64,000 nt of DNA from Eledone cirrhosa (taxonomy: Eukaryota): the NCBI GenBank assembly GCA_964016885.1, contig OZ024742.1, positions 39,122,001-39,186,000 of the forward strand, in the 5' to 3' direction. Each line of letters opens with the position of its first letter. The first letter of the stretch is position 1. Shown one piece after another: positions 35,743-53,669 of the stretch. The notes below the pieces were generated by a model, which made no database searches, was not told the origin of the DNA, and worked only from the letters and a program-made list of their open reading frames with translations. Both the position numbers and the translations under genes were made by a program.

Positions 35743-36059
35743 TATGCATGTATGTATGTATGTGTGTGTCTCGTACTCCGACACCTACACGCGCACATAC
35801 ATACATAATTTTATTGGTTTAAGTCAATAGACTGTGACCATGCAGGGGCACTGCTTTGAAAATAGAAATCTATAGCTTCCTAAATATAAGTTCAGCTGGC
35901 CCCTTACGAGGCATCTTCTCATCGAATCTTTCTTTAATTATTTATTAATAGGGGCTCCAGCACTTTGACGAAAAGCAAGAACAAAACGCACCGCTCATCC
36001 AGGAATCAAGCCCACAAACTTATGATCCTGAGTCCAATCCTTCAACCACAAATAATATA

Positions 36060-36286: not shown

Positions 36287-37035
<749 letters not shown>

Positions 37036-37106
37036 ATATATATATGTATATATATATATGTATATGTATATGTATATATGTATATATATATATATATGTA
37101 TATATG

Positions 37107-37200
<94 letters not shown>

Positions 37201-37394
37201 TATATGTAATTTAATACAATAACAGAGATAGCTTAAAGCTAAACTCCGACTGGTAACCATCTCACTCAACAAACATTAGGTTATATGTTAGTATAAACCC
37301 AATTTAAGTGTTTGGGGTGCTAACTATATGTATTATGTGGAAAGCCAGTTGTATTATTTTATGAGATATAATTAAAGTTAAAATATATCTCTCT

Positions 37395-37519
37395 TTCCAA
37401 ACAATTGTTTCATTATAAGTTTTCTACAAATTAGGAGAATGTTTCCAGTTTATGTAGAAGCCTAACATATATTCATGTAAGAATATATTTAGGTGGGCGT
37501 TTATAAATCATCAGTGGAA
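37395..37519 (-). ncRNA. Hammerhead ribozyme candidate with extended branched stem II (family H3)
   Basis: TTCCA-CTGATGA-[96 nt]-GAAA-CAATTG-TT-TGGAA. Confidence 0.6.
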
Positions 37520-38381
37520 GCCCATTAAACTTTGATATAAGAAAAAATTCTTACCGCAGTTAAAAATCGTGTCTCCTAAGCTGCTCCCTCACGCATCGAA
37601 TGACCGCCAAATTTGAAATTCCATCAGTTTTTGACTGAGGAAGTATTATAGCGTCACGAAGCGGGAAGGGGAGACAACCAATACACGAGAAAAGAAAAAA
37701 TAATATTCACGCGGGTTAATTAGTTTTTTCAAAAACATTATCAATCCAACGTGTTAAGAACTCAATTGAAATTAAAAAAATAAATGCATGCGTGTATTAA
37801 TTACACACGCATATAGATATTTTCTTAGGCTAAAAACAGAAGTTGTACCCGAATAACAAACCGCATTTCATAACCGTAGTAAATACGGAAAGTTACGCTT
37901 TAAAGGGCAATCGGGAATGTAAATCTCTGGCCGAATTAAGAGTAAAATATTAAATATACGCGGGTTAATTAGTTATTTCAAAACTAATATCAATTCCACG
38001 TGTTAAGAACTCAATTAATTAAAAAAAATAAAAGTATGCATGTAATTATTTACACAGGCATATATATATTTTCTTAGGCTAAAAACAGAGAAGTGACAAC
38101 CAAAAAACCATCATATCGCACAACAGTAATAAATACGGAAAGTCATATTTATAAGGTACCTGGAAATAAAACCTCTGGCCAATCAAGAGTAAAATATTTA
38201 ATACAATAACAGAGATAGCTTAAAGCTAAACTTCGAGTGGTAACCATCTCACTCAACAAACATTAGGTTATATGTTAGTATAAACCCAATTTAAGTGTTT
38301 GGGGTGCTAACTATATGTATTATGTGGAAAGCCAGTTGTATTATTTTATGAGATATAATTAAAGTTAAAATATATCTCTCT

Positions 38382-38506
38382 TTCCAAACAATTGTTTCAT
38401 TATAAGTTTTCTACAAATTAGGAGAATGTTTCCAGTTTATGTAGAAGCCTAACATATATTCATATAAGAATATATTTAGGTGGGCGCTTATAAATCATCA
38501 GTGGAA
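38382..38506 (-). ncRNA. Hammerhead ribozyme candidate with extended branched stem II (family H3, second copy)
   Basis: Same motif; basal stem II TTATAAG/CTTATAA is a perfect 7 bp in this copy. Confidence 0.62.
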
Positions 38507-38570
38507 GCCCATTAAAAAATATATATGTATATATATATATGTATATATCTATATATATGTATATATATAT

Positions 38571-38629
<59 letters not shown>

Positions 38630-38666
38630 CATATATATATATACATATATATATATACATATATAA

Positions 38667-38753
<87 letters not shown>

Positions 38754-38847
38754 TATATATAATATATATAACGAAGGAAGAGTAGTAAGGAACCAGGTGG
38801 ACCATAAGGCACCAGAGCACTCGATACTTTGGGTAGTAGAGTTGGTA

Positions 38848-38962
38848 ATAGGAAAAGAGTCAGGATCCCGACGGCAGAGCTCAAGCCGTTTCGACGGCTA
38901 TTTCTGGACTCCAGAAATAGCCGTCTTGAGCTCTGCCGTCGGGGTCCTGACTCTTTTCCTAT
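38848..38962. repeat. Near-perfect GC-rich hairpin (about 54-bp arms)
   Basis: TAGGAAAAGAGTCAGGATCCCGACGGCAGAGCTCAAG..GACGGCTATTTCTGGA followed directly by its reverse complement. Confidence 0.9.
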
Positions 38963-39179
38963 ATATATATAAAATTGAAAAAGTGGAGAATAACATGGAA
39001 AACAGTACAACAAAGGAGATTTATTTACAGTCTAACAATTGTTTCACTGATAGAGTTGTCTAAAAATGACTAAACACTGAAAGTAGGGCCACTCAATTTA
39101 AAATACTTGTTAGCTCCATCATATCCTCAGAGACTGAGAGAAAATAAATAAATAAATATATATATATATATATATATGC

Positions 39180-40123: not shown

Positions 40124-40195
<72 letters not shown>

Positions 40196-40199
<4 letters not shown>

Positions 40200-41267
40200 C
40201 AACTAGAAATTGATTAACATATAAATAAACATATGAAACAATCACAGGGGATAATTTGTACAAGTGTGTAAGCACACATAACCAGGTAGGTAACTAAATA
40301 AAGTTAACTAGAACTTCAAAAATAGATACCTTATAATATGATTAATCTTCCTTGTATATATTCCATTAAAGAAATATATTTCACCAATTAATCGATTGGT
40401 AAACAACAGTGGCCAGTACTTGGATTCTCAACAAGGAAGGAGTCCAGCGATCTGTGTTTAGGCATTAAGTTCAAATCAGCGACTGGCCAGTAACACGTGC
40501 TGTATCTACTAAAAATACACAGATCATACCAGCTTCGTCCCAGTGGCGTGAATAGGGTTATCGACAACTAGAAACAGCAGTCAAGTCCTTTCAACAGAGT
40601 TAGCTCTACAATTAAGGAGCCGTATTTATATATATATATATCCAAAATTAAGATAAATCAAAATGAATTTAATCTAAATCAAATTATGGATCTCATGCCA
40701 GAAACTCATGCGCCATATCACCCGTAAAATAAGCTCTAACATTCTAATGAATAGGTCCGAGCATTTTATAACAACTAGAAATTGATTAACATATAAATAA
40801 ACATATGAAACAATCACAGGGGATAATTTGTACAAGTGTGTAAGCACACATAGCTAGGTAGGTAACTAAATAAAGTTAACTAGAACTTCAAAAATAGATA
40901 CCTTATAAGATGATTAATCTTCCTTGTATATATTCCATTCAAGAAATATATTTCATCAATTAATCGATTGGAATATATACAAGGAAGATTAATCATCTTA
41001 TAAGGTATCTAATTTTGAAGTTCTAGTTAACTTTATTTAGTTACCTACCTAGCTATGTGTGCTTACACACTTGTACAATTATCCCCCGTGATTGTTTCAT
41101 ATCTTTATTTATATTTTAATCAATTTCTAGTTGTTATAAAATGCTCGGACCTATTCATTAGAATCTTAGAGTTTATTATACGGGTGATATGGCGCATGAG
41201 TTTCTGGCATGACACCCATAATTTGATTTAGATTAAATTCATTTTGATTTATCTTAATTTTGGATAT
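40196..41267. repeat. About 572-bp direct repeat followed by an inverted copy (Penelope-like arrangement)
   Basis: 40196-40399 recurs at 40768-40971; 40969-41267 is the reverse complement of about 40635-40937. Confidence 0.85.
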
Positions 41268-46020: not shown

Positions 46021-46186
46021 GATGTTTTATTCATTATCCTAACTGTTTCCTTTCTTTATGCTCCAGTATGGCCTTTCTATTTAGTTTTATACAAAATTGA
46101 CCTTTTCTTTCGACCGCCTCCTAATTTACCCAAATATTGTAGCTTTCACCGTAAGTATTCCCAATAAATATTTTAAATCCACTAAA

Positions 46187-53669
<7,483 letters not shown>

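Follow-up and report, generated by a model that had tools for sequence, protein, structure and literature searches.

The 64,000-nt stretch of Eledone cirrhosa DNA analysed here (the window; contig OZ024742.1) contains at 37209..38516 two near-identical direct repeats around a non-coding interior, and the question that this locus raises is what kind of element it is and whether the large hammerhead motif in each repeat is real. The repeats (37209-37529 and 38196-38516) are offset by 987 bp and differ at 4 of 321 positions. On the minus strand both read TTCCA-CTGATGA, a 96-nt insert, and then GAAACAATTGTT-TGGAA, which places both hammerhead core boxes around the insert, and (TA)n tracts lie on either side of the element, as a preliminary description of this DNA had stated. 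Its claim that the element lacks an ORF was also borne out: no frame of at least 100 aa lies inside it, while frames touching its ends begin in the (TA)n flanks; three units of the family contained no ORF remnants; and tblastn of 121 Hydra-type proteins against the unit gave no convincing match, the best one covering 42 aa at E 2.7e-4 on the A2 unit. The body of the element contains an internal duplication of about 250 bp (about 37690-37950 and 37938-38197, 78% identical). The reading that we consider quite probable is that the element consists of a full unit joined to a 5′-truncated second unit, is non-coding and likely trans-mobilised by Hydra-clade Penelope retrotransposons, and carries type I hammerheads with a 96-nt stem II that forms a three-way junction and with predicted self-cleaving activity.

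Table 1. Positions of the element, its hammerhead motifs and neighbouring features in the window
Feature	Positions	Strand	Remarks
Downstream pseudo-LTR	37209..37529	minus	contains the fixed 3′ end (37209) of the family; 69/73 insertions, among the matches listed, share this end to within 6 nt
Upstream pseudo-LTR	38196..38516	minus	5′-truncated second unit, of which only the final 321 of 987 nt are present; length locus-dependent across the family
Hammerhead motif 1	38382..38510	minus	core boxes, covariation
Motif 1, GGGC	38510-38507	minus	
Motif 1, stem I	38506-38502/38386-38382	minus	
Motif 1, CUGAUGA	38501-38495	minus	
Motif 1, GAAAC..GUU	38398-38387	minus	
Motif 1, predicted cleavage	between 38387 and 38386	minus	
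Motif 1, 96-nt stem II domain	38399..38494	minus	basal helix and two hairpins (three-way junction), conserved GCCC in the junction
Hammerhead motif 2	37395..37523	minus	insert 37507-37412; one A-C mismatch in the basal helix
Motif 2, predicted cleavage	between 37400 and 37399	minus	
Non-coding unit body	37530..38195	minus	666 nt, diverged internal duplication
Predicted 987-nt monomer	37400..38386	minus	cut site to cut site, from the coordinates
(TA)n target microsatellite, 3′ flank	36966..37208		
(TA)n target microsatellite, 5′ flank	38517..38761		
Hammerhead motif of a separate 5′-truncated element, second family	39028..39136	minus	element at 38972-39160; stem II insert of 78 nt, stem I of 6 bp, stem III palindrome as in the element at 37209..38516

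The surroundings of the element are repetitive. A strong 110-bp hairpin repeat at 38850-38960 recurs beside (TA)n tracts at several loci and has a weak MIR7127 match, far under the gathering score. Another non-coding repeat family in (TA)n is present at 40195-41200 as a partial duplication (205-bp repeats, 572 apart); visual inspection also placed it next to elements in L086 and L148, and no hammerhead was seen in it. Two satellite arrays with 22/42-bp and 35-bp periods cause strong GC skew at 46186-53669, and the window is otherwise rich in retrotransposons, as 7 of 10 scanned frames match Pfam, six of these being RT, endonuclease or zf-RVT.

Conservation of the hammerhead was measured in 62 repeats, which were picked solely by their 3′-tail motif, with mismatches counted against the majority. 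The 11 core positions contained one mismatched cell in 677, and the counts were 5/496 in stem I, 6/741 in basal stem II and 4/372 in stem III, as compared to 193/5,136 for the remaining insert positions and 2,057/38,106 (5.4%) for the remainder of the unit plus the tail. The free position N7 varied in 27 of 61 repeats. When 14 subfamily rows were compared, none of the 11 core columns varied, while 36 of the 41 flanking columns did. The preliminary description had named core boxes no more conserved than the flanks as a finding that would speak against the motif, and the opposite was observed. The compensatory changes, which it had proposed as a check, were searched for in 16 members spanning the sequence clusters, with the structure drawn from the same rows. 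In this set 91.7% of cells could pair, and changes on both sides were present in 11 of 42 pairs (shuffles 0/500; slid partners 2-5), although, because the rows are related, these represent only a few events, and the shuffle counts should not be read as probabilities. The double changes were distributed over stem I (one), basal stem II (two, including 10.1/11.1), hairpin 1 (four), hairpin 2 (three) and stem III (one), where the palindrome switches from ACAATTGT to ACGATCGT. In an old subfamily (L148, L166, L178, L196) a one-base insertion in stem III breaks the palindrome and permits a 3-bp hairpin.

The features of a type I hammerhead are present in the motif, namely the CUGANGA and GAAA boxes, A15.1-U16.1 and NUH, and G was absent from H17, which was U, A or C in each of 204 distinct long motifs (131 from the family of this element, the others from the remaining families). 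The U-U mismatch at 10.1/11.1, which had been noted as a caveat, turned out to be an ordinary feature. It is found in the young subfamilies, while older ones have G-C or A-U; it is the usual state among the Hydra-clade hammerheads collected in File S2 of Craig 2021 (PMC8557442), and it has been reported in active ribozymes (Perreault 2011; Cervera 2020, PMC7229834). The pattern of changes indicates that the core and helices of the motif are under selection. Together with the double changes, the conservation of the core supports the proposal of a real type I hammerhead motif in which stem II is branched and stem III palindromic; its self-cleavage is predicted.

Folded by itself, the insert forms a three-way junction with a free energy of -23.1 kcal/mol (family median z -4.9). 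Hence, the branched fold described earlier was recovered, but its basal helix TTATAAG/CTTATAA is complete in the 38.4-kb copy only, since the 37.5-kb copy has an A-C mismatch in place of G-C; in the majority of the family this helix has 8 bp. When the flanks were included, the nested MFE structure (-28.8) paired GGGC with GCCC and contained no hammerhead, and the probability of stem I was 0.01-0.06. The enforced hammerhead fold had values of -25.1 and -22.4 in the window copies, so that the nested MFE structure was better by 3.7-6.4 kcal/mol. Unguided RNAalifold recovered both hairpins, stem III and the GGGC/GCCC helix, while it missed stem I and the basal helix. The 4-bp GGGC/GCCC pairing is nearly invariant amid variable neighbours (1/8 columns vary) and shows no covariation, and by eye a similar pairing was not consistently seen in other families. 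The pairing could be a pseudoknot contact between stem I and stem II, as known from other hammerheads (Perreault 2011), or alternatively a competing off state. The stem III 8-mer is worth -6.4 kcal/mol as a duplex and forms no hairpin alone.

The motif was not found by the standard database search. Between window positions 36,000 and 40,000 Rfam gave no hammerhead match, even at E values of up to 10, and in six loci that included short-stem forms no match reached the gathering score. The expectation that length-limited searches would miss the variant fits the limits given in the portion of Craig 2021 (PMC8557442) compared here, which are 7-17 nt for spacers and 35-50 nt for half-cores; however, because Rfam also misses the short forms, its failure here is not attributable to length alone. 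In the portion of the squid genome paper compared here, the hammerheads listed are those of Rfam only.

To see the element among its relatives, the 3.0-Gb genome was searched with it at the DNA level, which gave 2,090 candidates, the best 40 at 98-100%. Exact-motif counts for the family were 2,521 for the 3′ tail, 1,921 for the tail of the window subfamily and 1,233 for an insert-internal motif, with 0 for controls. The anatomy of insertions was read from 82 loci among the first 100 matches listed for the window-subfamily tail, which corresponded to 73 insertions when rows sharing an identical 3′ context were counted once. Among these listed matches, (TA)4+ was present within 30 nt of the 3′ end in 63 of 73 insertions and at the 5′ end in 52 of 73; 14 insertions were shorter than a quarter of a unit, 43 reached up to one unit, and 16 exceeded one unit, by 65-609 bp and in one case by 1,514 bp. 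The 5′ ends were scattered across the unit, with a variable truncation point, and a short run into the next unit was seen in a few copies (L231, L235, L259 and L262); Penelope elements may have an optional tail of 30-40 bp, which derives from two RT start sites. The predicted cut site is located 191 nt from the 3′ end, inside the pseudo-LTR. Across the family, unit sizes range from 730 to 1,009 nt, and related subfamilies have 730- and 743-nt units, which contain a single copy of the duplicated segment and are arranged head-to-tail. The fixed 3′ end, variable 5′ truncation and partial tandems are the pseudo-LTR anatomy of Penelope elements, and the same tandem layout is described for the Penelope-like elements in the parts of Craig 2021 (PMC8557442) and Frangieh 2024 used for comparison. 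Hence, the upstream repeat, on which the description of the element as LTR-like had been based, is a 5′-truncated second unit of 65 to more than 600 bp depending on the locus, and, as repeat length differs from locus to locus, 321 bp is a property of this insertion alone.

Sister repeats of the same locus differed by a median of 1.9%, compared to 6.9% between loci (14 loci, p=0.003), with exceptions at two of the 14 tandem loci, L224 and L249. The greater similarity of sister repeats than of other copies indicates that both come from one template lineage. Recurrent differences between sister repeats amounted to 0/106 in 15 tandem loci, a comparison of low power. As judged from these sequences, independent homing is ruled out as the rule; the data match a circle or a re-copied monomer, and the read-through of a homogeneous tandem would also be compatible. 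In contigs of three sequencing runs of unknown kind from one study, the family appeared only as a high-copy polymorphic repeat, in which ends and circles are not resolvable.

The abundance of enlarged hammerheads was assessed with a genome pattern scan, in which the core boxes and the stem III palindrome were fixed and the spacing between the boxes was binned. The scan gave 8,598 matches for a spacing of 8-38 nt (control 28), 3,629 for 39-69 nt (control 29), 5,986 and 2,292 for 70-100 nt (controls 6 and 5), and 11,219 for 101-131 nt (control 32), where the 70-100 bin used two exact palindromes and the other bins a slightly looser pattern. In total, about 23,000 pattern matches had 39-131 nt between the boxes (controls 72) versus 8,598 short ones, although some of the long ones are in fact short hammerheads in which a further box occurs upstream by chance; stem I was checked in about 240 long motifs. 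For the set of 5,986 matches the control was the reversed pattern, and its 6 matches indicate that the window motif is not a product of chance. The long motifs sort into about 20 unrelated insert families of 48-116 nt. Most of their inserts fold as one long irregular hairpin with a closed base, while branched inserts were found in the family of the window element and in the single case of L074. In most long-insert families 10.1/11.1 is U-U, C-A or A-A. The largest family (L347-L358, on C1) has a 105-116-nt stem II forming a near-perfect rod of about 33 bp (-39 to -44 kcal/mol) and a stem I of up to 10 bp; its members often occur in inverted pairs, and L349 and L351 contain Hydra-type ORFs.

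Some of the long-insert families are autonomous. In L062 and L086 the order is hammerhead, ORF, hammerhead with a period of about 3 kb, and many copies of this clearly autonomous family contain open frames of 778-784 aa. The single 760-aa ORF of L086, which is shorter than 3 kb, encodes RT followed by a C-terminal GIY-YIG and has the RWK, DKT and CxCx5C linker motifs. The Pfam search with this ORF gave no match, while its motifs, read against the published criteria and alignment rows, point to a Hydra-clade sequence. The hammerhead of L086 has a 90-nt insert rather than the canonical short form. Four further families have, in at least one locus each, a Hydra-type ORF that ends 370-830 nt upstream of the hammerhead, so that in several families the motif lies in the 3′ UTR of a Hydra-type RT/GIY-YIG ORF; in the flanks examined of the remaining long-insert families no Hydra-type ORF was seen. 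Overall, autonomous Hydra-type elements of this genome have stem II inserts of 78-116 nt. The second family, whose hammerhead at 39130 is located 630 bp from the window element, has a related 77-nt form in L080, which lies 420 nt behind a Hydra-type ORF. A metagenome scan gave four loci, two of them being the same Hydra element with a 25-nt insert, and this value, together with the roughly 12-25 nt of published elements, indicates that the expansion of stem II is not general to the clade.

Several other arrangements were seen in the same genome. A 562-bp tandem array of at least three units in L079 (833-1957, plus strand), whose stem II has 51 nt and whose stem III palindrome is longer, resembles a satellite-type retrozyme by its sequence. 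In a family with a 20-nt stem II (e.g. C1:21369192) the first core box often reads CCGATGA or CAGATGA, and CTGAAGA occurs as a second box about 45 nt upstream; these could represent core variants or a second motif. At C4:204.1-204.6 Mb (L083, L091, L092, L098, L099, L101, L103-L105) there is a cluster of tandem full-length autonomous Hydra-type copies with several intact 778-aa frames.

These observations can be combined into a proposed mechanism. A tandem locus would be transcribed, and two hammerheads, paired with each other by way of the stem III palindrome, would cleave at GUU; cleavage of dimers through a palindromic stem III has been established for related motifs (Cervera and de la Pena 2014, PMC4209133). 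A Hydra RT/GIY-YIG protein would nick (TA)n, and reverse transcription would begin at an internal point of the RNA some 190 nt beyond the cut, a kind of start that was shown in vitro for another Penelope element (Frangieh 2024). From the cut linear RNA short copies of about 185 bp would arise, while uncut or re-ligated (circular) RNA would give longer, more-than-unit copies such as 37209..38516. As no autonomous copy sharing the sequence of the family was seen among 137 motifs, we infer from the autonomous elements in the same genome that Hydra-clade Penelope retrotransposons are the likely mobilising partner. In this mechanism, the enlarged stem II would probably be an appendage of an ordinary core, one that is tolerated but also under selection.

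A stronger proposal is that stem II is a functional domain. It posits that Hydra-type elements of this lineage have repeatedly built 60-116-nt structures, such as the three-way junction with a pseudoknot in the window family and the rod of about 33 bp in the largest one, and that binding of the element's protein or a host factor switches cleavage on or off and so chooses between linear, circular and uncut templates. We regard it as possible but rather unlikely. If it were true, protein-gated hammerheads would outnumber short ones in the Eledone cirrhosa genome, and such forms could hide in Penelope groups reported without hammerheads.

Another explanation, to which we assign a low probability, is that the RNA is not cut at all, and that the hammerhead-like fold is a structural or protein-binding signal for the Penelope protein, with tandems arising from uncut read-through transcripts. 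The advantage of the GGGC/GCCC helix over the active fold in the nested MFE structure is in agreement with this explanation, as is the fact that most copies traverse the cut site (59/73, among the matches listed, exceed a quarter of a unit). In addition, hammerhead mutations had no effect on insertion in vitro in the one Penelope element so tested, where cleavage was not needed (Frangieh 2024). The main reading is also weakened by the failure of eight out of nine dimers of frog retrozymes to cleave (Li 2026, 10.64898/2026.07.22.740005). On the other hand, the pattern of changes tracks catalysis, as N7 is free, H17 is never G and all 11 core columns are fixed. The 5′ ends also bear on this point, as they were enriched at an ATATAT run at +11 from the cut relative to equal or longer AT runs, both in the window subfamily (11/82 vs 4/148, p=0.002) and in the other subfamilies (12/63 vs 3/60, p=0.016). 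Ends at +0 to +6 from the cut numbered 3 versus 0.7 expected and 3 versus 0.8 expected, and ends exactly at the cut site 1 of 68 and 1 of 49 at risk, with about 0.1 expected each (P 0.09 and 0.11). However, a sliding 14-nt scan showed 12/79 at +0 to +13 and a similar hazard at the duplicated motif elsewhere (4/26 and 5/38), and the pile-up at +0 to +13 overlaps the ATATAT microhomology, which may explain much of it given that other sites reach similar hazard. The truncation pattern is thus suggestive of cleavage, while its use as a proof was rejected, because two other sites match its hazard.

It is also conceivable, but in our judgement very unlikely, that the family has its own autonomous parent outside the sampled copies, and that the units of 730-1,009 nt arose from it by internal deletion and continue to be copied together with it. 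Other long-insert families of this genome are autonomous, and the sample comprised about 140 tail matches out of more than 2,500, both of which would leave room for such a parent. However, the copies that extend beyond the unit start enter another unit or flanking DNA, none of them a Hydra-type ORF, and the three units are free of ORF remnants. An autonomous partner sharing the sequence of the family was found neither among 137 motifs nor by tblastn; one of the 137 has an upstream Hydra ORF, which belongs to a neighbouring insertion. The family and the autonomous families share only the core and the stem III palindrome.

The idea of a true LTR retrozyme, Gypsy-mobilised and with two LTRs around an internal region as in plants, agrees with the two near-identical, ribozyme-bearing terminal repeats around a non-coding interior, but it is largely refuted by the anatomy of copies and is extremely improbable, as each locus has repeats of a different length, the 5′ ends are ragged, a single repeat is present in most copies, subfamily units run head-to-tail, the ribozyme is type I instead of type III, and the (TA)n flanks show no target-site duplication.

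The comparison with known systems places the family of 37209..38516 among Penelope-dependent elements. It is similar to the Hydra-clade Penelope-like elements in the portions of Craig 2021 (PMC8557442) compared, which also have (TA)n targets, pseudo-LTR tandems and type I hammerheads about 90-200 nt from the 3′ end, with a 3-bp stem III of the form ACN..NGT and a frequent U-U at 10.1/11.1. In contrast, the published hammerheads have about 12-25 nt between the core boxes versus 58-116 nt in the verified Eledone cirrhosa motifs, and the window family is non-coding. The minimal Penelope hammerheads, as described in the parts of Cervera and de la Pena 2014 (PMC4209133) compared, are alike in the short stem I, the palindromic stem III region and the low predicted stability of the monomer; their largest helix II is 7-8 bp, and G10.1-C11.1 is called highly conserved.

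Metazoan non-LTR retrozymes, as presented in the portions of Cervera 2020 (PMC7229834) and Li 2026 (10.64898/2026.07.22.740005) that were compared, are also non-coding and AT-rich, with a type I hammerhead and a short palindromic stem III in each repeat, and have been proposed to be non-autonomous Penelope derivatives. They are mostly multimer arrays of 200-400 nt (51-972 nt in Li 2026) with canonical small stems, whereas the window family has units of 730-1,009 nt, at or above the published size range, occurs mostly as single truncated or partial-tandem insertions, and has a branched 96-nt stem II. Circular RNA was shown for metazoan retrozymes (Cervera 2020; Li 2026), while the window family is known here from DNA. 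The earlier description of the family as retrozyme-like therefore stands as far as a non-coding retroelement of the Penelope/retrozyme kind with a hammerhead in each repeat is concerned, but not in its LTR aspect. The plant LTR retrozymes have a type III hammerhead, LTRs of fixed length and a 4-bp target-site duplication, as opposed to the type I hammerhead, variable repeat length and (TA)n flanks found here.

Stem II of the hammerhead tolerates large engineered inserts, so the chemistry of the enlarged stem is not surprising. A natural hammerhead interrupted by a long insertion is said to exist in the discontinuous Clec2 ribozyme, which is reportedly an mRNA ribozyme split in stem I by an unstructured insert, rather than a structured stem II domain in a retroelement. 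The nearest published forms in the portions of Craig 2021 (PMC8557442; Files S1 and S2) compared are two spike-moss elements, PLE-X1_sMoe and PLE-X1_sTam, with about 50 nt between the boxes, and eight Naiad half-cores with 35-50 nt. These are about half as long as the window family and are single cases marked as deviating, for which those portions report neither branched structure nor covariation. The mostly open-access full-text literature searched contained no report of Penelope hammerheads with a structured stem II of 60-116 nt.

What is surprising is the number of such forms, their repeated expansion and the selection on the added domain. Penelope hammerheads are described as minimal. One genome contains about 23,000 oversized pattern matches in many families, and in the window family the added domain is under selection as well as the catalytic core. 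The known natural architecture of the best-studied small ribozyme is thereby widened, searches with short-spacer descriptors are shown to undercount it, and the absence of hammerheads reported for some Penelope groups is perhaps open to doubt. Ready constructs for studies of domain function are available in this genome, in which young subfamilies with natural compensatory changes coexist with short-stem families and intact Hydra ORFs. Hence, the family is of a known kind, a non-autonomous Penelope derivative working like a Penelope-dependent retrozyme, and what is new is its enlarged, structured stem II.
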